From the IMG/VR virus record IMGVR_UViG_3300005613_000004: a stretch of DNA of 64,000 nucleotides; one strand, given 5' to 3'. Of this stretch, positions 22,651 through 61,907 are shown in pieces. A program made the translations under genes and the position numbers. A model generated the notes under the pieces. The model did not search any database. It saw only the letters and a list, made by a program, of their open reading frames with translations, and was not told the DNA's origin. The DNA comes from a virus. Positions within the stretch are counted from its first letter, which is position 1. Every line of letters starts with the position of its first letter.

Positions 22651-22720
22651 AAGACCTTAGAGGAGAGTTGTAAAAACTCTCCTTTTTTGTTATAATACAT
22701 ATTATAGTTTATTCCTTATT

Positions 22721-23770
22721 ATGTCCGAATATAAAAAGACGGCACTTGTACTTGGAGCCGGTGGATTTATCGGAAGTCATATGGTCAAAAGACTTCGTTC
22801 AGAAGGTTATTGGGTTCGTGGTGTAGATCTCAAACGTCCTGAGTTTTCAGATACTGAAGCAAATGAATTTATTCAAGGTGATCTTAGAGATGTAAGTTTT
22901 GTTCGTCGTTGTATTCGTTTCACTGGATATCTTGGAAACTTTTATCAGCAGATTGTTGAAAAGTTTGCACAACCATTTGATGAGATTTATCAGTTCGCTG
23001 CTGATATGGGTGGTGCAGGTTTTGTTTTTACTGGAGAGAATGATGCAGATATTATGCATAATTCAGTAACTATTAATCTTAATGTTCTCGATGAGCAACG
23101 TAAGTTCAATGAACTAAAAGAAGTTAATAAGACAAAAATCTTTTATTCTGGATCTGCTTGTATGTATCCAGAACATAATCAACTTGATCCAGATAACCCC
23201 GATTGCCGTGAAGATTCAGCATATCCAGCAAATCCCGACTCTGAGTATGGATGGGAGAAACTTTTCAGTGAAAGACTCTACTTTGCATACAACAGGAATC
23301 ATAGTATTCCTGTTCGGGTTGCTCGTTATCACAATATCTTTGGTCCTGAAGGAACCTGGGACGGTGGAAGAGAGAAGGCACCAGCTGCAATCTGCCGCAA
23401 AGTTGCTTATCTCCCGGAGCAAGGTGGAGCAATCGAAGTGTGGGGAGATGGCTTACAAACTCGTTCCTTCTTGTTCGTTGATGAATGCATTGAAGCAACT
23501 CGACGACTGATGGATAGTGATTTCATGGGTCCTGTAAACATCGGATCTGAAGAGATGGTTACTATTAACGAACTGGTAGATACTGCTGCCCGTGTTGCAA
23601 ACAAAGAAGTTCAGAAGATTCATATTGATGGACCTCTTGGAGTTCGTGGACGTAATTCCAATAATGATCTTATCCGCGAAAAACTTGGATGGGATTATGA
23701 ACAAACTTTAGAAGAAGGTATTTGTATTACCTACAATTGGATTCAAAGTCAAATTAACCACAATAAATAA
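22721..23770 (+). CDS. NAD-dependent epimerase, GDP-mannose 3',5'-epimerase-like
   Basis: GAGGFIG, AADMGGAGF, YxxxK (YGWEK), GGREKAPAAICRK, GVRGRNSNN. Confidence 0.88.
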   Translation: MSEYKKTALVLGAGGFIGSHMVKRLRSEGYWVRGVDLKRPEFSDTEANEFIQGDLRDVSFVRRCIRFTGYLGNFYQQIVEKFAQPFDEIYQFAADMGGAGFVFTGENDADIMHNSVTINLNVLDEQRKFNELKEVNKTKIFYSGSACMYPEHNQLDPDNPDCREDSAYPANPDSEYGWEKLFSERLYFAYNRNHSIPVRVARYHNIFGPEGTWDGGREKAPAAICRKVAYLPEQGGAIEVWGDGLQTRSFLFVDECIEATRRLMDSDFMGPVNIGSEEMVTINELVDTAARVANKEVQKIHIDGPLGVRGRNSNNDLIREKLGWDYEQTLEEGICITYNWIQSQINHNK

Positions 23771-46562: not shown

Positions 46563-46604
46563 ATCAACAGGTTAAGGAATGTAAACATTTCTAATCTTTT
46601 GCAA

Positions 46605-46712
46605 ACACCCCTTCAACCGAGACCTATAGGGTGTATAAATCACGTCTCTCATACCTCTGTCTGAGGGTGGCAGAGGAATAGTAAAACCACCATCTCCCTG
46701 ATGGTCTTACTT
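46605..46712 (+). ncRNA. PhotoRC-II-like structured psbA leader RNA
   Basis: Stems accc/gggt, gagac/gtctc, cctctgtc/ggcagagg, accatc/gatggt in the psbA 5'UTR, the known context of this motif. Confidence 0.75.
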
Positions 46713-46726
46713 TCTTTTAAATTAAA

Positions 46727-48068
<1,342 letters not shown>

Positions 48069-49881: not shown

Positions 49882-50952
49882 ATGAGTCTTTTGGCTTCTT
49901 CTACACTTTCACCACCAATTTTGCAAAGGGGATGGTTCGATGTCTTGGATGACTGGCTTAAACGCGATCGTTTTGTCTTTGTGGGTTGGTCTGGATTATT
50001 ACTTTTTCCCACTGCTTATCTTGCAATTGGTGGCTGGCTTACTGGTACAAGTTTCGTTACGTCGTGGTACACCCACGGACTCGCAACTAGCTATCTTGAG
50101 GGTGCTAATTTTCTTACAGCGGCTGTGTCAACGCCTGCTGATGTTATGGGTCATTCTCTTCTTCTACTTTGGGGTCCTGAGGCTCAGGGAGATTTCGTCA
50201 GGTGGTGTCAACTTGGAGGGCTTTGGGCCTTTGTTGCTCTCCATGGTGCCTTCGCCCTTATTGGGTTTATGCTTCGGCAGTTTGAGATTAGTCGTTTAGT
50301 AGGAATTAGACCGTACAATGCGATTGCTTTTTCAGGTCCTATTGCCGTATTTGTTAGTGTATTTCTCATCTACCCACTTGGACAATCCAGTTGGTTCTTT
50401 GCGCCATCGTTTGGCGTTGCGGCGATCTTTAGATTCCTTCTTTTCTTACAAGGTTTCCACAACTGGACACTCAACCCCTTTCATATGATGGGTGTTGCTG
50501 GTATACTTGGAGGGGCACTTCTTAGTGCAATTCATGGTGTTACAGTAGAGAATACATTGTATCAAGATGGTGAACAAGCAAACACTTTCAAAGCTTTTGA
50601 TAGCACCCAAGAAGAAGAAACTTATTCAATGGTTACTGCCAATCGTTTTTGGTCGCAAATTTTCGGTATTGCGTTTAGTAATAAGCGTTGGCTTCACTTT
50701 TTTATGCTGTTTGTTCCTGTTATGGGTCTCTGGACATCTTCAATCGGGATCATCGGACTCGCACTCAACCTTCGTGCATATGATTTTGTGAGTCAAGAGA
50801 TTCGTGCTGCTGAAGACGCTTCATACGAAACTTTCTACACGAAAAATATCTTGTTGAACAATGGCCTTCGTGAATGGATGATGACTATTGACCAACCACA
50901 TGAAAACTTTCCTGTAATTGAGGAAATACTTCCAAGAGGAAATGCTCTTTGA
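49882..50952 (+). CDS. psbD: photosystem II D2
   Basis: [35 protein letters not shown]. Confidence 0.98.
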
Positions 50953-50958
50953 TACTCA

Positions 50959-50979
50959 AGACCCTTCGGGGTCTTTTTT
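50959..50979 (+). terminator. psbD terminator
   Basis: agaccc-ttcg-gggtct-ttttt. Confidence 0.85.
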
Positions 50980-51007
50980 ATTTACATAAGACCCAGAGTA
51001 TGATATT

Positions 51008-51015
51008 ATATAAAT
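51008..51015 (+). promoter_or_regulatory. T4-type late promoter for the endonuclease
   Basis: TATAAATA. Confidence 0.75.
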
Positions 51016-51041
51016 AATAATAGTTATTCGTAGTTCGTATC

Positions 51042-51605
51042 GTGGCATTAAATAATAAATCAAAACCTTGTGGTGCTTTAGTTGGTGAGAAGTTTGGAAA
51101 ACTTACTGTTTTAAAAGAAGAAGTTATTTTAAAGAGTGGAAAAAACAGAGTATATGCAACTTGTAAATGTGAATGTGGTGGAGAAAAAACTTGTGACAGA
51201 AGTGGATTAACGACTGGAAGAACTACAAGTTGTGGGTGTGTTAGAAGAGAAACCACAATTACCTTCAATAAAACTAAAAAGAAACCAGAAGGTGAATTAA
51301 AAAGTGATGACCGAAGATATAAAATGTATCACAATGCTCAACACAGAGCAAAGAAAAAGGGAATACCATTTACAATTTCTATGGAAGATATTGTAATACC
51401 AGAAACTTGTCCTCTGCTTGGCATACCATTAGTATCTACAAATGATAAGAGAGACCCAAGAAATCCAAGTTTAGATCAAAAAGTTCCTGGTGAAGGATAC
51501 ACTCCCGATAATATTTGGGTTATATCTTCAAGAGCAAATGCTTTAAAGTGGGATGCCACCCTACAAGAACTCAAAACACTGGTAGAAAATCTGGAAGCCC
51601 TCTAA
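51042..51605 (+). CDS. free-standing HNH-type (beta-beta-alpha-Me) homing endonuclease
   Basis: N-terminal GEKFGKLTV...CKCECG...TTSCGC domain; CPLLG...PSLDQKVP..GY...NIWVISSRAN. Confidence 0.82.
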   Translation: MALNNKSKPCGALVGEKFGKLTVLKEEVILKSGKNRVYATCKCECGGEKTCDRSGLTTGRTTSCGCVRRETTITFNKTKKKPEGELKSDDRRYKMYHNAQHRAKKKGIPFTISMEDIVIPETCPLLGIPLVSTNDKRDPRNPSLDQKVPGEGYTPDNIWVISSRANALKWDATLQELKTLVENLEAL

Positions 51606-51737
51606 CCTTTAATAAGGATTTCTCTTATTAAAGGAAACCCACTAAACCTTTAATAAGACCACTTCCACAACCGTCACAGCACTCCTTTACAGGGGGTGCT
51701 TTTTTATTGTATAATATTAATGTAAGTAAAACACTTC

Positions 51738-52628
51738 ATGAAACTTTGGATGCTTGGTAATCGTCTCACTACTGAGATGTATGAACGTAACAGATTTGTA
51801 GAAGAAGCAGATAAATATGGTATTGATTTCTCAGTAGTTTTTGCTGACGAAATCGACTTAATCGTTTCCCAAGATGACCGCAAATCTATTCGATATCGTA
51901 ATGATATTCTCAGTCTCCCTGACTGTTTACTTGCTCGTACTGGGTCTGCTACTGGTTATTTTAACCTCAGTGTTCTCAGACAGTTTGAAAGACTGAATGT
52001 AATGACGATGCCAAACTCTGCTTCGATTGAGGCATCGAAGGATAAGATGTATGCTAACCAGATTATGGCACAAGCAGGACTTCCCATCCCAAAGACGATG
52101 CTGACAAGATTTCCTTGTAAAGCAGAGACTGTTCAGAAGCAAGTGGGATTTCCTTGTGTCCTAAAAGTGGTTACTGGTTCTCATGGTGCTGGTGTTTTCC
52201 TTTGTGAAGATGCTAAACAGTTTGAAGATTTGTCGGAACTTATTTCTTCTCTTGAATCAAAATCTTCTATGATTGTTCAGGAGTATGTAAAAGAATCGGA
52301 AGGAAGAGACCTTCGGGTCATTGTTATTGGTGGTAGAGTTGTTGGAGCAATGCAACGCAAGTCTACTGATGGTTCATTTAAAGCCAATATTTCCCGTGGA
52401 GGTAAAGGGGAAACATACGATGTTGATGACGAATTGGAAATGCTATCAATTCAAGTTGCAAAAGTTCTTGATCTTGATATTGCTGGTGTCGATCTATTAT
52501 TTTCTAGCGACGGATACCGAATCTGTGAAGCAAACTCAGCCCCAGGATTCCAAGGATTTGAGGAAGCACTAGGGATTAATATCCCTCAGAAAGTTTTTGA
52601 TTATGTTAAACTCAGATGTGGAGGGTGA
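51738..52628 (+). CDS. RimK-like ATP-grasp ligase
   Basis: SKDKMY, IPKT, VLKVVTGSHGAGV, QEYV..GRDLRV, FKANISRGG, AGVDLL, EANSAPGF. Confidence 0.9.
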   Translation: MKLWMLGNRLTTEMYERNRFVEEADKYGIDFSVVFADEIDLIVSQDDRKSIRYRNDILSLPDCLLARTGSATGYFNLSVLRQFERLNVMTMPNSASIEASKDKMYANQIMAQAGLPIPKTMLTRFPCKAETVQKQVGFPCVLKVVTGSHGAGVFLCEDAKQFEDLSELISSLESKSSMIVQEYVKESEGRDLRVIVIGGRVVGAMQRKSTDGSFKANISRGGKGETYDVDDELEMLSIQVAKVLDLDIAGVDLLFSSDGYRICEANSAPGFQGFEEALGINIPQKVFDYVKLRCGG

Positions 52629-52692
52629 ATAAGACCACTTCCACAACTGTCACAGCACTCCTTTACGGGGGTGCTTTTTTATTGTATAATAC

Positions 52693-53406
52693 ATGGGTAA
52701 AGCAATCGAGGCTGTGCCCATGCTACTTTCAGAATTCAAGCAAAAATTTTGTACTATCAAGGCAAGAGGATTTATTAAATCCCATCGCAAAGGTGATACT
52801 GGTGTGGGTCATACCCTTGAACAAGAACTGGGACTGACTGAGAATTGTATCTCTGGTCCTGATTTTGAGGACAATGAACTCAAAGGAGCACGTAAAGGTG
52901 CTGGTGGTAAGCAGACACTGTTCACCAAAGAGGGTGAGTGGGTTGTATCGCAGAAAGATTATATTGCACAATACGGTTTTCCTCACACCACAAAAATTGG
53001 TGAGATAAGTGGACAATCTACCGTCACCAAGACTGTTAACAACCGTGGTCTATCTATTGTGACCACTGATGATTACTGTACCGTTGTGCATGGTGATACT
53101 ATCATCGTTAAGTGGGATTGGGAGACACTAGTCAACCAGTTTGGTAAGAAGTTCCCTGCCTGTGTGAAAGTATTTGCCGATGTTGAAAAACGTGATGGTG
53201 TGGAATACTTCCATTATAATGAAGTGTATAGATATATTGGAACTGATAAAAATCTATTTCGTACTGCTATAGAGAATGATGTGATTGCCATTGATATTCG
53301 TATGCGTACACAGAACATGATTGGCAAATCTCTTCGTAATCGTGGTACTGCATTTCGTATAAATCATGGTAATATGGAAGAACTGTTTATTAAGGAGGAA
53401 CTTTGA
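52693..53406 (+). CDS. MvaI/BcnI-family restriction endonuclease (start possibly ATG 52720)
   Basis: GFIKSHRKGDTGVGHTLEQELGLTEN; PD-x4-ExK (PDFEDNELK); TLFTKE; NRGTAFRI. Confidence 0.82.
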   Translation: MGKAIEAVPMLLSEFKQKFCTIKARGFIKSHRKGDTGVGHTLEQELGLTENCISGPDFEDNELKGARKGAGGKQTLFTKEGEWVVSQKDYIAQYGFPHTTKIGEISGQSTVTKTVNNRGLSIVTTDDYCTVVHGDTIIVKWDWETLVNQFGKKFPACVKVFADVEKRDGVEYFHYNEVYRYIGTDKNLFRTAIENDVIAIDIRMRTQNMIGKSLRNRGTAFRINHGNMEELFIKEEL

Positions 53407-54308
53407 AAGACACAATTCTGTATGGAGACTGTAGAGAAACGTTGCAACAGTTTGCGGAGTCTGGTGTTCGTGCTCGTATGTGTGTGACATCTCCTCCTTA
53501 CTATGGATTGCGTGACTATGGTAATGAAGATGCACAGATAGGTCTAGAAGAATCGCCTGAAGAGTTTATTCAACAACTGGTTGAGGTGTTTCGTGGTGTG
53601 CGTGATTGTCTCACTGATGATGGTACATTATGGGTTAACATTGGTGATAGTTACTATAACTATCGTGGAGGAAAGGGTCAGGCATTACCAAAACAATCTG
53701 TTGCTAATACAAATCAAGATCTACCACAAGGAAAAAATCCTAGACGTGGTAATAAACTGAAAGGATATAAAGAGAAAGATCTTATCGGTATTCCTTGGAT
53801 GCTTGCATTTGCTTTACGTGCAGATGGATGGTACTTGAGACAAGATATTATTTGGAGTAAGCCCAATCCAATGCCAGAAAGTATGAAAGATAGGTGTACT
53901 AAATCTCATGAATACATATTCTTACTCAGTAAAAAGCAAAATTATTTTTTTGATGTTGAGAGTATAAAAGAACCTACTATTGATGGTAAATCATTGAAAA
54001 GAAAGAAGAGTGTTTGGAATATTCAAACAAAACCTTATAAGGGTGCTCACTTTGCAGTTTATCCTCCAGAACTTATTGAACCTGCTATTCTTGCTGGTAG
54101 TGAAGAGGGTGATATTATTCTTGATCCTTTTATGGGTTCTGGAACTACAGCAATGGTTTCTAAAAGTTTAGGTAGGCATTATATTGGGTGTGAACTTCAT
54201 AAAGAATATGGAGAACTAATTGATAATAGGATATCTGAATACAATAAAATATATACTGCAAAGGATAAAATAGTTGGTGAAGGTAAACTTATTTTTGAGG
54301 ATGAATAA
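53403..54308 (+). CDS. beta-class amino-DNA methyltransferase, probably N4-cytosine
   Basis: Motif IV TSPPY N-terminal, motif I DPFMGSGTT C-terminal; TTGA overlap with the REase. Confidence 0.92.
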   Translation: MKDTILYGDCRETLQQFAESGVRARMCVTSPPYYGLRDYGNEDAQIGLEESPEEFIQQLVEVFRGVRDCLTDDGTLWVNIGDSYYNYRGGKGQALPKQSVANTNQDLPQGKNPRRGNKLKGYKEKDLIGIPWMLAFALRADGWYLRQDIIWSKPNPMPESMKDRCTKSHEYIFLLSKKQNYFFDVESIKEPTIDGKSLKRKKSVWNIQTKPYKGAHFAVYPPELIEPAILAGSEEGDIILDPFMGSGTTAMVSKSLGRHYIGCELHKEYGELIDNRISEYNKIYTAKDKIVGEGKLIFEDE

Positions 54309-54385
54309 GACCACTTCCACAACTGTCACAGCACTCCTTTACGGGGGTGCTTTTTTATTGTATAATACTCTTATAGTCAATCAGA

Positions 54386-54598
54386 ATGATGGCAGTAAAC
54401 CACAGAAAAATGACTTGTAAGGAAGCTCTTTTGGCTCGATACAAAGTCTCTGGGCGTAAATCAGAAAGTGGATATGGTGAATCTGCTGTTGGTTTGTCTT
54501 ATGAGGAAGCACAAAGATTCTTTGATTCTTTGACTTATCGTGGTTTTGAAATCAAAGTGGTTGCTTACTGGGATGAACATGTTTTTTATTCAGAATAA
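54386..54598 (+). CDS. hypothetical protein (cassette 3)
   Basis: Exactly fills the gap between repeats 3 and 4. Confidence 0.65.
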   Translation: MMAVNHRKMTCKEALLARYKVSGRKSESGYGESAVGLSYEEAQRFFDSLTYRGFEIKVVAYWDEHVFYSE

Positions 54599-54644
54599 AC
54601 CACTTCCACAACCGTCACAGCACTCCTTTACGGGGGTGCTTTTT

Positions 54645-54652
54645 TATAAATA
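54645..54652 (+). promoter_or_regulatory. late promoter TATAAATA replacing the -10 box in repeat 4
   Basis: gtgcttttt-TATAAATA-aat versus gtgcttttttattgTATAAT in the other copies. Confidence 0.8.
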
Positions 54653-54673
54653 AATCTATGGAAGTTAAAAAAA

Positions 54674-55156
54674 ATGAATTCACAAGAACTTCGTAACCTT
54701 CAAGAAGCATATTTAGAAGTTGTTGAAAATCAACAGCAACTTGATGAAGGATATGTAGAATTTGACAAAGATAGAGGACCTAGAAAACCATCGCCAAGAG
54801 GAAAGTTGGTAACGAAAGCCTCACAAAAAAGACTTGGCAATATTCTTTCTCCACATCATAGAGATGCAAAGAAACAAGGAGAAAGAGCTGAAAAAATGAG
54901 CTCGGTTAGGGATACTCATAGTCCAGAAAAAGCACAAGCAAAAGCAGCAGCAAATAAGGCAAAAGGTGAATCAAAGAAAAAGGCATTCGGCAATCGTTTA
55001 AGAAGATCGGACGGACAAGGTATTCAGGATAGTTATGATTATTACGACATCATCCTTTCACACCTTCTTGATGAAGGTTATGCTGAAACACCAGAAGCAG
55101 CAGAAGCAATTATGGTGAATATGAGTGAAGAGTGGAGAGATAGTATTATTGGTTGA
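54674..55156 (+). CDS. probable head-internal protein (cassette 4)
   Basis: MNSQELRNLQEAY..QLDE leader, basic core, DIILSHLLDEGYAETPEAAEAIMVNMSEEW tail. Confidence 0.65.
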   Translation: MNSQELRNLQEAYLEVVENQQQLDEGYVEFDKDRGPRKPSPRGKLVTKASQKRLGNILSPHHRDAKKQGERAEKMSSVRDTHSPEKAQAKAAANKAKGESKKKAFGNRLRRSDGQGIQDSYDYYDIILSHLLDEGYAETPEAAEAIMVNMSEEWRDSIIG

Positions 55157-55237
55157 TAACCACTTCCACAACTGTCACAGCACTCCTTTACGGGGGTGCT
55201 TTTTTATTGTATAATACTCTTATAGTCAATCAAACTA

Positions 55238-55773
55238 ATGACTGAAGAATACGGATACATTTCTGATGCCTTTGATATGCTACCAGAAGAGGAACTTCTT
55301 ATGACTGACGAACAAATTAAAATGCTCCGTCGTCTCATTCAAGATGAGATTGAATGTGCTCAAATTGATGGTATGGAGCATGGTCAATGGGGATGGGCGG
55401 AGAAACAACTTGATGAAGGATGGAAAGAGTTTCAGGAGAGTTTTACCAAATGAGTATCCCACATTTCAAATCCCAAGACGACTGGCTAGAGTTTCTCAGC
55501 ATCTTTCAGGGCCAATGGCAATGTAAGCTAACACTGCTGGATCGTGTGAAGAATGATTTGTTCCCTGAATATAAGTCTTGGGATCAACTTCAACCGAAGA
55601 CTTTGGAAGTGATCAACGACATTGTATCTAATCTTGTGTATGAGGTAGAGCGTCAGTTCAAAGAGACCCATCAGGACTATAAGACTGATGATGATGACAT
55701 CTTCATTCCCTATCGTTCTTTCAAAGAGAATGTAACAGAAGCATTGAAAGAGGCTCTAAAGGAGGACAACTGA
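55238..55773 (+). CDS. two hypothetical proteins (55238-55453 and ~55450-55773; cassette 5)
   Basis: ATGA-coupled ORFs filling the gap between repeats 5 and 6. Confidence 0.65.
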
Positions 55774-55898
55774 CCACTTCCATAACCGTCACAGCACTCC
55801 TTCGCATGGGTGCTTTTTTATGGTATAATGACTTCATATACATCAATCATCATGATCAAAGATTCTGCCCCATAATTAATAGTAAAATTATAAAAATT

Positions 55899-56837
55899 AT
55901 GAATCCAATTTATGAACACTTTAAGTCCAAAAACTGTGAAGTAAATTTTATTGATAAGAATATTTGGGAAATATCAAAAGGCAATTCTAAATTTTTGATA
56001 TATGTTCCATACTTGGTATGTGATCAGGACCCTTCACTTTCGAAGGAAATTACTGAATTTAAATCAAGAACAAATGCATACCTGAAACGTAATAATTATC
56101 CACATACTGAACAATTGTTTGTATCTAGAATTGAGGATTTGGATAATGCTTTAGATAAAATTGGATATCCTTGTGCTATAAAGCCAAATAATGAAAACAA
56201 TGGAAATGGGGTTTATTGTAATATAAAATCAAAACATCAATTAATGTTTCATATACACCAACAAAGTGCATATTTTTATCAAGATGGATTGATATTAGAG
56301 AAGCACGTTAGAGGTGATGATTATAGAATAACAGTCATTAATAATGAGTTCTTATTCGCAGTACAGCGAAAACCTCCATTGATTGTTGGTGATGGTAAAA
56401 AGACAATTATTGAATTAATTGATGATAAGAATGAAGAAATAGAAAAACTTAAAAATAAATTTAGTTTTTATAATAATATCATTGTCAATGATTCTGAGAT
56501 TAATTATAATTTGAGTTTAAATAATTTAACATTTGATTCTGTTCTTGATGTGGATCAAACATTTATATTGAAGAGTATTTCTAACTTAAGTGTTGGTGGA
56601 GAGAGAATATTTGTTCCTAGAGAAAAAATACATGAATCAGTTATTGATATGTGTGAATCTTTATCTAAAGATTTAAATTTATTTTCACTTGGGATTGATT
56701 ATATAACTGAAGATATTAGTAAAGAACCAGAACTGGGTAAAGATTCTATAATAGAATTAAATTACAACCCTCAAGTTTCTGGTGAGTATTATTTTAAATG
56801 TTTGGATATGATGCTTGAAAAGTATGAATGTAACTGA
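55899..56837 (+). CDS. ATP-grasp ligase resembling the cyanophycin-synthetase/GshF grasp domain (start likely ATG 55899)
   Basis: YPCAIKP..ENNGNGV, LEKHVRGDDYRITV, PPLIVGDGKKTIIELID, SNLSVGG, GIDYITEDIS, IIELNYNP; no Mur domain. Confidence 0.8.
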   Translation: MNPIYEHFKSKNCEVNFIDKNIWEISKGNSKFLIYVPYLVCDQDPSLSKEITEFKSRTNAYLKRNNYPHTEQLFVSRIEDLDNALDKIGYPCAIKPNNENNGNGVYCNIKSKHQLMFHIHQQSAYFYQDGLILEKHVRGDDYRITVINNEFLFAVQRKPPLIVGDGKKTIIELIDDKNEEIEKLKNKFSFYNNIIVNDSEINYNLSLNNLTFDSVLDVDQTFILKSISNLSVGGERIFVPREKIHESVIDMCESLSKDLNLFSLGIDYITEDISKEPELGKDSIIELNYNPQVSGEYYFKCLDMMLEKYECN

Positions 56838-57552
56838 TTCTGGAGAATATGGAGATATCTTTGAAGAAAGAGGGTATCTTTACCATCTTGCTATGAGTAA
56901 GTTTCCCAATGCTAGAAAACTTGAGTTTGATAATCTTTTTGAAGAATGTGAACTTCGACCATCTGAGGACATCTTAGATGTTCCTTCTCTTGGTGGATAT
57001 TTGGATTTATATGAGACGGAAGGTGTTAATATAACCTATGCAGATTTTGCTCCTACAAAAGGTGTAATTAATTTGGAAAGTCCATATTCTAATTGGGATT
57101 TGGGAAGTTTTGATAGGATAATTTCTTTAGCTGCCACTCATCATATTAGGGATATTGAAAAATTTATTTCCAATATAGATAAACATTTGCGTCCCGGTGG
57201 AATTGTAACCATTGCTGATGTAGAACCTGACAGTGGAGTTTCCAAATTCTTAGATGGATATGTGGATAAGTATACGATTACTGGATCGCATAGAGGATAT
57301 TATCGTGATTTTTCTAAAGTAGAAACTCCCTGGAAAATTATTTCTCATTCAAAAAAACAATGTGATTGGAAGTTTTCTGAAGAAATTATTGATATTGCTG
57401 AATTTTGCTATGATTTATTTGGATTGAAAGATTGTCATTTTTCTTCTTTGATTGATACTTTAAGAGATGATATTGGAATTGAATATAATTCTGGCAACTA
57501 TGTATTAAAATGGAATCTAATATACACACATTACATTAAGTTTGATAATTAA
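56815..57552 (+). CDS. class I SAM-dependent methyltransferase
   Basis: ILDVPSLGGYL, ISLAATHH, LRPGG..TIADV. Confidence 0.8.
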   Translation: MKSMNVTDSGEYGDIFEERGYLYHLAMSKFPNARKLEFDNLFEECELRPSEDILDVPSLGGYLDLYETEGVNITYADFAPTKGVINLESPYSNWDLGSFDRIISLAATHHIRDIEKFISNIDKHLRPGGIVTIADVEPDSGVSKFLDGYVDKYTITGSHRGYYRDFSKVETPWKIISHSKKQCDWKFSEEIIDIAEFCYDLFGLKDCHFSSLIDTLRDDIGIEYNSGNYVLKWNLIYTHYIKFDN

Positions 57553-57591
57553 ATATAAGGTCAACTATATAATGTGAGTTTGATTTGATAC

Positions 57592-58041
57592 ATGGAAGAA
57601 TATAGTATTAAAATTGTTTATAAGAAACTTTCTCTCGAAGAAAAATTAGAAATTGTAAACCTTTGGACTTCCGAAAATGCTGTTCCTTATAATGTTGCCA
57701 TTGAAAGAGTTGAGCATGTTGTTTGCAGTATAATTCATAATCCTACTGGAAAAATTATAGGTGTCAGTACAGCACCACCCAAACAATTTCATGGGAAATT
57801 TTATTATACTTACGGAATGTATATTTCACAATATCATAGGAAAAATACTTTTACAAGAAAACAACCCTGGATTTTGCAATCAACTATTGATGCATTAAAA
57901 AATTCAAAACCTCTTGTTTCTTCTATTATATTGTCACTTGTAGAAAATCCTAAAATTTCTCATAAACTGATGTTACGTAAAGGTTGGACAATATTTGATA
58001 ATGATAGATTTAAAAATGTATATTATATAAAATTGACCTAA
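57592..58041 (+). CDS. GNAT-like hypothetical protein
   Basis: IVNLWTSENA, GKIIGVST, YGMYISQYHRK; fold call is inference. Confidence 0.45.
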   Translation: MEEYSIKIVYKKLSLEEKLEIVNLWTSENAVPYNVAIERVEHVVCSIIHNPTGKIIGVSTAPPKQFHGKFYYTYGMYISQYHRKNTFTRKQPWILQSTIDALKNSKPLVSSIILSLVENPKISHKLMLRKGWTIFDNDRFKNVYYIKLT

Positions 58042-58712
58042 TGAGAAATAAAAAAAATTATCTAGTATTATATTTACTATCTCATATTAGTTTTTTATTT
58101 TATGTTTATATTTTTGGATTGAATTACATCTATACATTATTATTGGGATTAATGGTGTATAATTTATCAGCAGAACTTTACATGCATAGAGGATTGTCTC
58201 ATAATCATTTTAAATTTTCTGATAATGTTCAAATGATACTGAATATTTTATATTCGATGTGTAATTTTGGTAGTATATTAGTTAGTATTTCTGCTCATTA
58301 TAATCATCATAAATTTATGGATCAACAAAATGATCCTCATGATTTTAGAAGACTTGGTGTTTTTAGAACTATAATTAAAGACTGGGATAATTATAGTCCA
58401 GATAAAAATGTCATGAGAAATTTGATAAAAAATAAAAATTTAAGGGATCAACATTTTAATCACCAAAAATATTCTATTATTTCGGTATTATTTTTCCCAT
58501 TTGTGCCTATGATTAGTTTTTGGGCAATAAATCTTATATTCATAGTTACACATACGGGGAATTATAAAGATAGTGCTATTAATATTCCATTTTTATACCC
58601 ATTAATGTGGGGGTCTGAAATGCATTATGATCATCATTTAAATCCTAGTAAGAAAAAAATGCATGATTATGATTTAATTTATTATCTTGGTGAACTGATA
58701 AAGAGCAAATAA
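58041..58712 (+). CDS. membrane fatty-acid desaturase-like protein (delta-9/DesC type)
   Basis: His boxes HRGLSH, HYNHH, HYDHH; DPH; hydrophobic helices. Confidence 0.82.
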   Translation: MRNKKNYLVLYLLSHISFLFYVYIFGLNYIYTLLLGLMVYNLSAELYMHRGLSHNHFKFSDNVQMILNILYSMCNFGSILVSISAHYNHHKFMDQQNDPHDFRRLGVFRTIIKDWDNYSPDKNVMRNLIKNKNLRDQHFNHQKYSIISVLFFPFVPMISFWAINLIFIVTHTGNYKDSAINIPFLYPLMWGSEMHYDHHLNPSKKKMHDYDLIYYLGELIKSK

Positions 58713-58736
58713 TCATTCAATTATTAATAAGAAATT

Positions 58737-59225
58737 ATGAAAGTTAATCAACAGTATTATAAGTATTGGTTGGATATTTGGAAAACACAAACTATCGAAG
58801 TTCTTGATGCAACTGCACTTATTCGTGTGATTGAATGTACAAACGGTTGTGTTCAGTATGCATTTCGTGATGGTAATGAGAATGCACTTTCTGTTGAACA
58901 AAGTAGAGAGTGTATGAAAATTTCTATGAGTACAATTAAGAATAAGGTTTTGACATTGCCTGACGGAACAGAAGTTGTATTACCGGAAGAATGCCATGGA
59001 ATTATGAATGAAGCACGAGATTTATATGTTCGTGGATTTAAGCAAGGTGATAATGAAGCACTGGAAGAATTTTATGCATTATCTAAATCACATTTTCATG
59101 TATTAGGTAGGCAGATTATTGATGAGAAGTTTCAGTTCTTTACAGAGCACTTTGAGGATGTCTTTACTTCTTACTGGATTATGATGGGGAGGATGTATAT
59201 TTACGAAATGGGTGAATTTATCTAA
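58737..59225 (+). CDS. hypothetical protein
   Basis: ORF track. Confidence 0.65.
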   Translation: MKVNQQYYKYWLDIWKTQTIEVLDATALIRVIECTNGCVQYAFRDGNENALSVEQSRECMKISMSTIKNKVLTLPDGTEVVLPEECHGIMNEARDLYVRGFKQGDNEALEEFYALSKSHFHVLGRQIIDEKFQFFTEHFEDVFTSYWIMMGRMYIYEMGEFI

Positions 59226-59248
59226 ATAGTTGTAAGACGCAATTTTTT

Positions 59249-59605
59249 ATGCCTCTTTACAATACCTTTCAAGCCTATGTTTTTAATCTCCACACAACTA
59301 ATTCTTCAGAAGCAAAACGGTTATGGAGGTCAAAAATAAAGGAAGAATGGGATTATCGATGTGCTTATTGTGGGTCTGATAAAAATATTACAATAGACCA
59401 TATTGTTCCAAGATCAAAAGGTGGTACAGATTTTACAGAAAATTGTATCTGTGCATGTCATTCCTGTAATCAAGACAAAGGTCATACTCCTATGGAAGAT
59501 TGGTATCTTTCACAGGAGTTTTTTGATATTGATCGTTATGAAAAAATTAAAAAATGGATGGAATCGGATTTGAAATTAATGAAAGTTTATCCATATAATA
59601 CTTAA
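59249..59605 (+). CDS. HNH endonuclease
   Basis: CAYCG...TIDHIVPRSKGG....NCICACHSCNQDKG. Confidence 0.9.
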   Translation: MPLYNTFQAYVFNLHTTNSSEAKRLWRSKIKEEWDYRCAYCGSDKNITIDHIVPRSKGGTDFTENCICACHSCNQDKGHTPMEDWYLSQEFFDIDRYEKIKKWMESDLKLMKVYPYNT

Positions 59606-59672: not shown

Positions 59673-61907
59673 ATGTCAACTCCGATTAGGATACGTAGGT
59701 CTGCTGTACCTAATAAAAAACCAACTACAGAACAACTTCAGTTAGGTGAATTGGCACTTAACTTTTATGATGGTAAAGTTTTTTTAAAACAGGATCAGGG
59801 GGGAGTTGGTGTTGGAACTAGAATCGTTTCAATTAATTCTAATGAGGTAGGAAATACTTTTTATGTTAACAAAGAAGGTGACGATAATGATACTGGACTA
59901 TCTCCAGACAGAGCATTTCTAACTATTAAAAAAGCAGCAGGAATTGCAACTATAAACGATGCCATTTATGTTGGTGCTGGTAGATATGTAGAAGATAATC
60001 CAATAGTTCTTGATGACTTTGTTACGATTATTGGTGGAGACATTCGTAACTGTGAGATTGAACCACAGAATCCAGAACATGATGTTATACAATTAGGTCA
60101 AGCAGGAACTGTTCAAGATTTATCATTTGTTGGTGTTGCAGATACTGGTTCTGGAGTCATTGCATATCGTCCATTAGTCGGTGTTGCATCTGATAGATTT
60201 TTTGACGCAGCAAGATTAATTCGTCAGAACTTAGATTTTATTGCACAAGAATCTGTGGGATATATTACAAGCACAGATTACAAAAATCCACCAATATCAA
60301 TTGATTCATCAAATTGTGCTGATGATATTAAAGATGTTTATCGTGCAGTATGTCATGATATTACACGAGGTGGAAACTCTAAATGTATTGGAGCAGGAAA
60401 ATCATACTTCGATATTAATGGAAATCTAGATCACATTGTGGGATTTGGTTCAACAACTATTGATACATTAAAATATTCTGTAGGTATTGCAAGATCATGT
60501 GTTAATAATATTTTATGGACCGGAAATTATCAATCTGCATTTACTCAAGTAAGGGATTTAAGTATTCAGGCGGATGGAGCAACAGGATCTAATTCGGATT
60601 ATAATTCTTGTGCCAATGTTCATTCTGCAATCAATTCTTGTGTTGGCATTGTAACTGGTATCATTCAGAATGGTATTGATGGATCACCTCCAACTTTAGG
60701 ATTTACAACAAATTATCCCGGTAATGATGGTGCTTCTCCCAATTCTGGTATTTTAACTTCTTCACTCAGTCCATCACAGGGTGTAGGAATTATTAGTAAA
60801 GGTCCTTATATTCGTAACTGTACTAATTTTATTAAGAATAGTATTGGATGTAAAATTGATGGATTTAATGCTGATGAAGGAGATAAAATAAACAATATTG
60901 GTGTTCAAGGTTCATTTAACGTTGATGCATTTACCCAATTCAATCAAAATGGTATTGGTGTATCAGTAACTAATGGTGCATATTGTCAATTAGTTTCTAT
61001 TTTTAGTATTTGTAATGATATAGCAATTTATGCAGGTAAAGGTGGACAGTGTGATTTGACAAATTCCAATTCATCTTTTGGAACTAGAGGATTAGTTGCT
61101 GAAGGTCTTGGTGATCAAACTAGTCAATGTACTGATCGGTATACGGGAGAAATTTCTACAGATGCTGATGAACTTACGAATGTTATAACAGTATCTGGTT
61201 TAGGAAATAATCGTCCATATCAGGGACAAGCATTGTATTTTGATAGGAAATATTTTGTCATCTCTGATATTAGAGTTACAAATGGTGGTTCTGGATATGA
61301 TGAAGATAATCCACCCGTTGTCACCATTGATGATCCGACAGGACCCGGACTTGCGATTCCTTCGCAAGCAACTACAACTGTTGAAAATGGATCTGTATCT
61401 GTAATTACAGTTTTTGGTGGTGGATCACAATTTGAAACCACACCCACAGTCACTATTGCACCACCAACCAGTGGAGTTCAGGCAACTGCTGTAGCTGATA
61501 TGGAAGCAATTTACTATGGTATTATTGAAGCAACAGAACCTGTTGCAGGAGTTTCAACAATCAGTTTAATTCAAAACCTAAATAACGATGTTAGTGTTGG
61601 TACAACAGTATATTTTTCCAAACAAAGTTTCCAAATTGTAAGTTCACATTCCTTTCAATACATTGGTGCGGGGAATACTATTGAATCTGCATATCCCTCT
61701 AGGGGTGGAGTGACAATTCAAGATAATGAGGTTATAAAACTTGATGGTGGTGAGATTACTTATACAAGCACTGATCAAGCAGGTAATTTTAGAATTGGTG
61801 ATGGTGTTGAAATTAATCAATCAACTGGTACAGTGACTGGAAACATTTATATTAAGAGTTTATTCACACAAGTCACACCATTCATTCTTGCATTAGGAGG
61901 AGAATAA
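59673..61907 (+). CDS. tail-fibre/baseplate-associated virion protein
   Basis: IRIRRSAVPNKKP..LGELALN, AFLTIKKAA, GSGYDEDNPPVVTI, FRIGDGVEINQSTG; TATAAATA ~59615. Confidence 0.75.
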   Translation: MSTPIRIRRSAVPNKKPTTEQLQLGELALNFYDGKVFLKQDQGGVGVGTRIVSINSNEVGNTFYVNKEGDDNDTGLSPDRAFLTIKKAAGIATINDAIYVGAGRYVEDNPIVLDDFVTIIGGDIRNCEIEPQNPEHDVIQLGQAGTVQDLSFVGVADTGSGVIAYRPLVGVASDRFFDAARLIRQNLDFIAQESVGYITSTDYKNPPISIDSSNCADDIKDVYRAVCHDITRGGNSKCIGAGKSYFDINGNLDHIVGFGSTTIDTLKYSVGIARSCVNNILWTGNYQSAFTQVRDLSIQADGATGSNSDYNSCANVHSAINSCVGIVTGIIQNGIDGSPPTLGFTTNYPGNDGASPNSGILTSSLSPSQGVGIISKGPYIRNCTNFIKNSIGCKIDGFNADEGDKINNIGVQGSFNVDAFTQFNQNGIGVSVTNGAYCQLVSIFSICNDIAIYAGKGGQCDLTNSNSSFGTRGLVAEGLGDQTSQCTDRYTGEISTDADELTNVITVSGLGNNRPYQGQALYFDRKYFVISDIRVTNGGSGYDEDNPPVVTIDDPTGPGLAIPSQATTTVENGSVSVITVFGGGSQFETTPTVTIAPPTSGVQATAVADMEAIYYGIIEATEPVAGVSTISLIQNLNNDVSVGTTVYFSKQSFQIVSSHSFQYIGAGNTIESAYPSRGGVTIQDNEVIKLDGGEITYTSTDQAGNFRIGDGVEINQSTGTVTGNIYIKSLFTQVTPFILALGGE

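Follow-up and report, generated by a model that had tools for sequence, protein, structure and literature searches.

A repeated unit of about 60 nucleotides (nt), for which we use the shorthand R, punctuates a gene array downstream of psbD in a 64,000-nt stretch of viral DNA (IMG/VR record IMGVR_UViG_3300005613_000004), the whole of which is referred to as the window. We found that R has a recognizable anatomy, that its relatives are distributed among many cyanophages, that the cassettes next to it vary in content between these phages, and that breakpoints of homology are concentrated at R. The reading we prefer, to which we assign a probability of roughly 0.7, is that R is a cyanophage module of the promoter-early stem-loop (PeSL) class, a composite promoter and terminator that also provides portable homology for recombination. 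R would fill the spacer from the stop codon of one gene to the 5' untranslated region (UTR) of the next. Its hairpin and U-tract would act as an intrinsic terminator for the upstream transcript, and a host-sigma-type early promoter, with its -35 element in the hairpin loop, would start the next one; in one variant a putative T4-type late promoter takes the place of the early promoter. If R has both activities, the cassettes would be insulated and self-expressed. Since the same ~60-75 nt recur in one orientation and are common to many co-occurring cyanophages, they could serve as portable homology for general recombination, functions for which are encoded by T4-like phages. By crossovers inside R, the hyperplastic region that follows psbD would gain, lose or swap whole open reading frame (ORF) cassettes, with a working terminator and promoter kept in every recombination product. 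The exchange would be homologous rather than site-specific, and might involve circular intermediates.

Exactly six direct copies of R, all on the plus strand, were located between 51657 and 55831. A direct-repeat search placed the six-copy family at 51652-55819, two independent pattern searches returned the same sites with 0 expected by chance, and a profile hidden Markov model (HMM) built from 67 distinct family members scored the six sites at 61-74 bits, with the next match at E > 1. The profile HMM detected no seventh copy, even a degenerate one, in the 64-kb window. An earlier note on this DNA had counted six near-identical elements, and these searches confirmed the count. Copies 2, 3 and 5 were identical over 59-60 nt, and copy 6 was 88% identical to these. 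The layout of R consisted of the stop codon, the arm ACCACTTCCA(C/T)AAC(C/T)GTCACA, GCACTCC-loop-GGGGTGC, T6 and ATTGTATAAT. As the note had stated, copies 2-6 begin at the preceding stop: the stop codon lay 0-5 nt 5' of the arm in these copies and likewise in most relatives, with the last base of the stop forming the first A of the arm in copy 6 and five bases (ATAAG) lying between the two in copy 2. The note had further ascribed a hairpin, a -35 in the loop and a downstream -10 to every copy. A terminator-like hairpin of 7-10 bp with a T-run (T6), at -10 to -14 kcal/mol, was indeed present in all six, but the promoter signature was found in five, where a -35-like loop hexamer (TTTACA, TTTACG in three copies, TTCGCA) was followed after a spacer of 17-18 nt by a perfect TATAAT, giving a consensus score of 10-11 out of 12; copy 4 carried TATAAATA instead. 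An extended -10 (TGnTATAAT) was discarded as a general feature of R, because only copy 6 has it. No recognizable Shine-Dalgarno sequence was seen in the R units, and shared 5' UTR types prolonged the repeat until only a few nt separated it from the ATG.

Among the 67 distinct copies, which came from three virus groups, the arm, stem, T-run and -10 were at least 90% conserved at most positions, and the loop hexamer was variable (TTTACG, TTGACA, TTCACA, TTGCAC, TTGACT). Pairing was found in 96.8% of stem cells, versus 38-69% when the partner was slid. The closing pair changed from G-C to C-G in 5 copies, a compensatory change, and 5 more were unpaired there, some of them as mixed GCAC...GTGG forms. 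No covariance model of Rfam 15 matched R at E values up to 1; the nearby psbA intron and PhotoRC-II motif were readily found. The 21-nt arm (consensus ACCACTTCCACAACYGTCACA) was C/A-rich, unstructured in folding and nearly invariant. Inspection by eye gave no fit to an NtcA site (GTA-N8-TAC), nor to a conserved palindrome, as CTGTnACAG arises only when Y is T.

The motif of copy 4, TATAAATA, occurred ten times in the window, each time on the coding strand, and seven or eight of these occurrences sat 20-50 nt before a start codon. This bias of strand and position fits use as a T4-type late promoter. The R4-type variant was also present 5' of homologous genes in L004, L012, L017 and L029 (L-numbers are labels of comparison loci). 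Elsewhere in the window, a hairpin unrelated to R (22659-22700) had TTGTAA in the loop and was followed by a T-run and by TATAAT 17 nt after the hexamer, ahead of a gene starting at 22721; its design was that of R and its sequence was different.

R was found in many other viruses. An exact 27-mer of R was present in 47 IMG/VR contigs, and a 72-nt R query matched 65-79 cyanophage records; the carriers include S-CAM4, S-CAM8, S-CAM9, S-RIM12, S-RIM44, the ACG-2014 phages and Syn1. Outside the Kyanoviridae, the isolate S-SKS1 (genus Llyrvirus) had 2-3 copies, and the T7-like podovirus S-RIP1 had R after psbA and a 61-amino-acid (aa) ORF, with R and ~100 nt of the next gene showing 85-89% identity to myovirus loci. 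In S-RIP1 (L050, 3501-3669) the gene after R was a truncated, unannotated version of the cassette gene met most often in myoviruses (gene cluster c5), and two genes upstream of psbA had 53-56% protein identity to S-RIM12 genes; by these matches the S-RIP1 region looks like a block of myovirus derivation. A search of 185,579 bacterial and archaeal genomes gave no exact match to arm plus stem, and on this ground we rejected a host origin of R by copying of a psbD 3' region. Cluster maps of 50 loci, in which eight ORFs reading through R (cluster 21) were included, indicated that the usual state was one R right after psbD, or after psbD and one gene. S-RIM12 and S-CAM9 each carried a single R ~50-75 nt past the psbD stop, the sole copy in each complete genome. 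Arrays of 2-5 R, always in a single orientation, were found in 13 other loci, and six copies was the maximum seen.

The genes next to R differed among relatives. The simplest arrangement, psbD-R-nrdC, was seen in L033, L043 and L044, and R in related loci preceded at least 10 different unrelated genes, mostly ORFans. The cassette of ORF160 (w160) was bordered by R copies in three loci (the window, L004 and L012) that differed in its neighbours and their order; similarly, the gene clusters c5-c36 lay between R copies in L004, L009 and L042, and c49 in L012, L019, L030 and L039. RimK was flanked by R on either side in the window; L016 and L031 had R on its downstream side only, L010 and L021 on its upstream side only, and in S-RIM12 no R adjoined it. 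The order in L054 was psbD, R, restriction endonuclease and methyltransferase, and its junction from R to the endonuclease gene was the same as that after RimK in the window; in L053 only the arm was present after the methyltransferase. Thus the content between repeats was not fixed, as expected from the exchange proposed in the earlier note: it varied, cassette order differed, and breakpoints piled up at R. Homology blocks terminated at R edges. On the right side of one R, L030 and L039 shared 99.7% identity, compared with 90.9% on its left side, and L039 had one extra cassette together with one extra R; in comparisons of L019 with L030 and L039, replacements were bounded by R copies. Overall, 105 of 508 distinct homology-block ends fell at R versus 1.8% expected from length (~11-fold, p 5e-76), and a breakpoint was found in 51 of 64 R-bearing gene junctions versus 167 of 700 others (odds ratio 12.5, p 7e-19). 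Variable columns within R told the same story at finer scale: those left of the core tracked the upstream gene, those from the -10 onward tracked the downstream gene, and central ones tracked neither, which is the pattern expected if crossovers fall inside R. Half copies of R were present in L053 (4120-4180), L021 (11898-11981) and L042 (4524-4607), and consisted of the arm, or the arm with the 5' stem and loop, fused to unrelated promoter-like sequence; junctions can therefore fall inside R.

Breakpoints could also gather at R if R were purely regulatory, a strongly selected terminator and early-promoter unit reused before many genes. Exchange would then proceed by other processes, such as homology of the flanking genes, illegitimate joins filtered by selection for intact genes, or double-strand breaks made by neighbouring homing-type endonucleases, and breakpoints would coincide with R only because no other intergenic sequence is conserved. 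Many cassettes in relatives had no R of their own, non-R junctions also carried breakpoints, the right border of the variable region (58732-58735) was without R, and endonuclease genes recurred in the region, all of which would suit this explanation; the hairpin at 22659-22700 likewise points to a general regulatory design in the window phage. However, convergent selection leaves unexplained the near-identical arm and 5' UTR types before unrelated genes. The exact switch of identity level at R, the locus with one extra cassette and one extra R, the loss of linkage across the middle of R, and the existence of half-R chimeras also argue against it, and we consider a purely regulatory R unlikely.

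Several observations weigh against R as a PeSL-type module of exchange. The near-invariant C/A-rich 21-nt arm is needed neither for the terminator nor for the core promoter, and the model does not explain it. R was confined to one locus, with one copy in the S-RIM12 and S-CAM9 genomes. The comparison loci were picked for carrying R, and R often coincides with the point where conserved psbD ends, so position may account for some of the breakpoint enrichment. In relatives, the majority of junctions in this region were without R, and 24% of these held breakpoints, so that R is a hot spot and not the sole route of exchange. Copies within a locus were no more alike than copies from different loci (0.852 versus 0.862), and only the window array was unusually uniform. 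General local gene conversion or concerted evolution of R was dropped as an explanation, because likeness within loci was not higher; the same result speaks for import of copies from a common pool rather than routine conversion within a locus. Finally, joins at a 60-nt exact repeat could have been made by the assembler if the window is a metagenome assembly.

This last point leads to the suggestion that the six-copy array is partly a chimera, in which cassettes of co-occurring phages were joined in assembly at an exactly shared repeat. The best relative differed for each cassette, GC (guanine plus cytosine) content changed at R6, and the 60-nt-identical R copies are common to many phages from the same kinds of samples, as such a chimera would predict. 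Mosaic best matches are equally predicted by real shuffling, however, and since normal reads are longer than 60 nt, assemblers are able to get through a repeat of this size. Moreover, arrays of 3-4 copies recurred at 99.7-100% identity in independent metagenomes (L030, L032, L039), a further multi-copy array was common to L009 and L042 at 94.6%, and the isolate S-SKS1 carries multiple copies. We regard a chimera as highly improbable.

The conservation of the arm raises another alternative, in which R is an enzyme-recognized exchange site and thus truly integron-like. The arm, or a cruciform formed by the hairpin, or both, would be bound or cut by a phage nuclease, for which the nearby endonuclease-VII/HNH-like proteins would be candidates, and breaks and cassette capture would be targeted to R. 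No other function is evident for an arm so well conserved across 67 copies and three virus groups. R1 with its psbD-side leader was 92-97.5% identical to relatives, and psbD of the same loci only 77-83%; in addition, the array is directly adjoined by an endonuclease gene, and related loci repeatedly carry an HNH gene. Yet the ORFs of 49-62 kb included neither a recombinase nor an integrase, arrays occurred in contigs without an endonuclease gene in the sampled stretch, junctions lay at several points inside R (arm-only and hairpin-only halves) instead of one fixed point, and no attC-like core sites were seen at cassette borders. An enzyme-recognized site of this kind is very unlikely in our view. 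Quite unlikely, too, is a broader possibility, that R is a dedicated cross-family exchange site for auxiliary genes beside photosystem genes, with arm and hairpin recognized by a phage nuclease or other protein and used by marine T4-like myoviruses, S-SKS1-like phages and T7-like podoviruses. If true, this would make R a functional, integrase-less analogue of an integron.

Table 1. Features of the array and its flanks (positions in the window)
Feature	Coordinates	Strand	Details
psbD (photosystem II D2), left anchor of variable region	49882..50952	+	Pfam Photo_RC 2e-70
Free-standing endonuclease gene, 187 aa, between psbD and R1	51042..51605	+	PHROG endonuclease 1e-31, endonuclease VII 3e-19, HNH 3e-15
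Conserved leader, after psbD in relatives, before R1 in window	51603..51656	+	CCTTTAATAAG / CTTATTAAAGG / CCTTTAATAAG
R1	51657..51716	+	hairpin 51678-51700, -35 TTTACA, 18-nt spacer, TATAAT ending 51715
Cassette 1: RimK-family ATP-grasp ligase	51738..52628	+	Pfam RimK 2e-52
R2	52633..52692	+	hairpin 52654-52675, -35 TTTACG, 17-nt spacer, TATAAT ending 52690
Cassette 2: MvaI/BcnI-type restriction endonuclease and N4/N6 DNA methyltransferase (53403-54308)	52693..54308	+	Pfam 9e-39, 3.5e-54
R3	54309..54368	+	hairpin 54330-54351, -35 TTTACG, 17-nt spacer, TATAAT ending 54366
Cassette 3: 70-aa ORFan	54386..54598	+	no family match
R4, late-promoter variant (putative)	54598..54652	+	same arm, hairpin 54619-54640, T-run; TATAAATA (54645-54652) in place of TATAAT
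Cassette 4: 160-aa viral protein (w160)	54674..55156	+	only PHROGs of unknown function; viral-only Atlas clusters
R5	55158..55217	+	hairpin 55179-55200, -35 TTTACG, 17-nt spacer, TATAAT ending 55215
Cassette 5: 71-aa ORF and ORF117 (phrog_10289)	55238..55773	+	
R6	55772..55831	+	hairpin 55793-55814, -35 TTCGCA, 17-nt spacer, TGGTATAAT (extended -10) ending 55829
Last unit: cyanophycin-synthetase-like ATP-grasp ligase, S-adenosylmethionine (SAM) methyltransferase, 149-aa ORF, desaturase-like protein	55899..58712	+	NCBIfam 1e-47, Pfam
Right flank, conserved: 162-aa protein (phrog_3318) and HNH endonuclease (59249-59605)	58737..59605	+	

The cargo was as unrelated as the earlier note had described it, and Pfam matches bore out its RimK-like ligase and restriction-modification pair. 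Its picture of repeat-delimited cassettes stood for cassettes 1-5 but not for the last, biosynthetic unit (55.9-58.7 kb), which had R on its left side only. Its label of an internal protein was abandoned, as ORF160 found no support as an internal head protein in Pfam, PHROG, NCBIfam or Atlas, and nor did any other ORF of the array. Three listed ORF starts were revised because they lay inside R or too near it, and the likelier starts are 52720 for the restriction endonuclease, 55450 for ORF117 and 55899 for the ATP-grasp ligase of the last unit; ORF117, 117 aa as listed, would have ~107 aa from 55450. Homologues of ORF117 (79-85% nt identity) were found in many loci at varying distances from R and psbD, and a homologue of the 70-aa ORFan followed psbD-R immediately in L007. 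Relatives of the restriction endonuclease were found in 30 IMG/VR contigs (L052-L081), at 63-92% aa identity with one at 31%. The methyltransferase adjoined it in 26 of these 30 loci; for the remaining four, either no methyltransferase was detected or the sequence stopped short of where it would lie. R-like sequence lay upstream of the endonuclease gene only in the closest three, L052-L054.

GC content fell from ~40% to ~27% exactly at R6, and the last unit had 23-34% GC, below the ~35% of the window and the ~40% of the cassettes before it; this low GC suggests that the unit may be of recent foreign origin. No relatives of the ATP-grasp unit were found in IMG/VR. In L082 (1-2840), a metagenome contig of 47% GC, psbD was followed directly, without R, by genes homologous to those of the ATP-grasp ligase (45% aa) and of the methyltransferase (41% aa); a distant phage thus shares both this two-gene module and its placement behind psbD.

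Judged by its sequence, the window phage is a T4-like cyanomyovirus of the Kyanoviridae, and its nearest matches were S-RIM12 (87.8%) and S-CAM9. The array starts downstream of psbD, which had 78-86% nt identity to psbD in related loci. The earlier note had placed the array beside a homing site, and an endonuclease gene does adjoin it. This 187-aa gene is an insertion between psbD and the conserved leader with R1, and it is absent from the psbD-R interval of S-RIM12 and S-CAM9. Its final codons and the leader after them matched the psbD 3' end of S-RIM12, homology to which restarted ~10 nt upstream of the endonuclease stop; the terminal codons of the gene thus look like a copy of the psbD 3' end. 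The interval 50952-51660 contained, with the endonuclease gene, its own terminator, a promoter-like site and TATAAATA (51009). In the leader (51605-51656; 92-97% conserved in relatives), CCTTTAATAAG was followed by its inverted complement CTTATTAAAGG and by a second CCTTTAATAAG, an order that makes two mutually exclusive hairpins possible directly 5' of R1. Upstream, psbA was preceded by a PhotoRC-II RNA motif (46593-46689, 79 bits) and split by a group I intron (47215-47517; Rfam RF00028, 90 bits) between exon ORFs at 46727-47278 and 47433-48068. At the other end, homology to L027, L025 and L009 restarted at 58732-58735, just 5' of the 162-aa gene, and this breakpoint was without R. The HNH gene was followed by a gene for a 744-aa protein (59673-61907), with TATAAATA 51 nt upstream; this protein matched tail-fibre/baseplate PHROGs (2e-216), and the variable region therefore borders a late structural gene.

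How cyanophages acquire and reshuffle the host-like and orphan genes clustered near psbA and psbD has been debated since the first genomes, but no mechanism had been tied to a particular sequence. With R there is a definite element that can be searched for, and it marks the left edge of the variable region and many cassette borders. Together with its leader it is more conserved than psbD, it crosses virus families, and it was absent from the cellular genomes searched. With a complete restriction-modification pair and two ATP-grasp ligases in the cargo, the functions moved extend to defence and metabolism. R could be used as a marker for variable islands in viromes and as an insulated expression unit for cyanophage engineering.

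The closest known counterparts of R are the PeSLs, described from the T4-like phages RB49/phi1, T4/PST and KVP40/nt-1 as units running from stop codon to ATG, with a sigma70-type promoter and a stem-loop, in five subclasses by stem-loop position, one of which overlaps the -35 (Arbiol et al. 2010, PMC2839356; Comeau et al. 2014, PMC4122927). They are dense in hyperplastic regions, lie beside ORFans and at indel borders, and number ~50 per genome; for those of RB49/phi1, promoter and terminator activity and mini-circles were shown experimentally (PMC2839356; PMC4122927). PeSLs were described in 2010 by authors who anticipated their presence across the T4-like phages. The earlier note had proposed a cyanophage equivalent, and the anatomy of R largely agrees with the published definition: a terminator-like stem-loop and a sigma70-type -35/N17/-10 would fill the spacer from the stop towards the next start, and the stem-loop overlaps the -35 as in the published subclass. 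R is also locally dense in a T4-like hyperplastic region, with six copies in 4.2 kb here compared with eight PeSLs in ~5 kb of RB49, and the copies lie mostly beside ORFans and at indel or replacement borders between relatives. R differs in several ways. Whereas PeSLs are a loose motif class, R forms a single discrete family of sequences, most of them sharing 85-100% identity over 60 nt. Upstream of the -35, where an AT-rich tract is found in PeSLs, R has the near-invariant C/A-rich arm of 21 nt, and it lacks an evident Shine-Dalgarno sequence. R is confined to one locus by photosystem genes, in contrast to ~50 PeSL copies genome-wide, and is common to several virus families including a T7-like podovirus; activity and mini-circles are experimental results for PeSLs and predictions for R. 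The late-promoter variant resembles the PmSLs of vibriophage nt-1, which combine a stem-loop with a middle-mode promoter (PMC4122927), in that a promoter from a different temporal class sits on an unchanged backbone: R4-type copies keep the arm, hairpin and T-run. Their putative promoter is of late type (TATAAATA, by motif and by bias of strand and position), not of the MotA-dependent middle type.

The integron-like capture platform of the earlier note holds as an analogy only. R shares with integrons a one-directional array of unrelated, mostly single-gene cassettes, a ~60-nt imperfect-palindrome repeat, a fixed anchor and varying content. Unlike integrons, it has no tyrosine recombinase, attI or attC architecture, and its cassettes would have their own promoters instead of Pc. 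Scans of the ORFs of 49-62 kb against Pfam, PHROG and NCBIfam found no integrase or recombinase, and inspection of the 67-copy alignment found no conserved inverse-core/core pair, R being a simple 7-10-bp hairpin with a T-run and what would be its own promoter. Exchange at R is most simply explained by general homologous recombination.

For cyanomyoviruses, tRNA genes and endonucleases have been named as gene mobilizers, with no conserved repeat (Sullivan et al. 2010; PMC3037559). The region concerned is of the same kind as that of R, in which host-like and ORFan genes near psbA and psbD vary among phages. Millard et al. 2009 is reportedly also cited for mobile gene cassettes and hyperplastic regions in cyanomyoviruses. 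A single cyanophage paper found to address PeSLs judged their density in S-PM2 too low (PMC4503421), and no description of the R repeat family was found in the searchable cyanophage literature. The PeSL concept is known, and what appears to be new is a discrete, conserved, cross-family repeat anchored by photosystem genes, with an unexplained arm and a putative late-promoter form.

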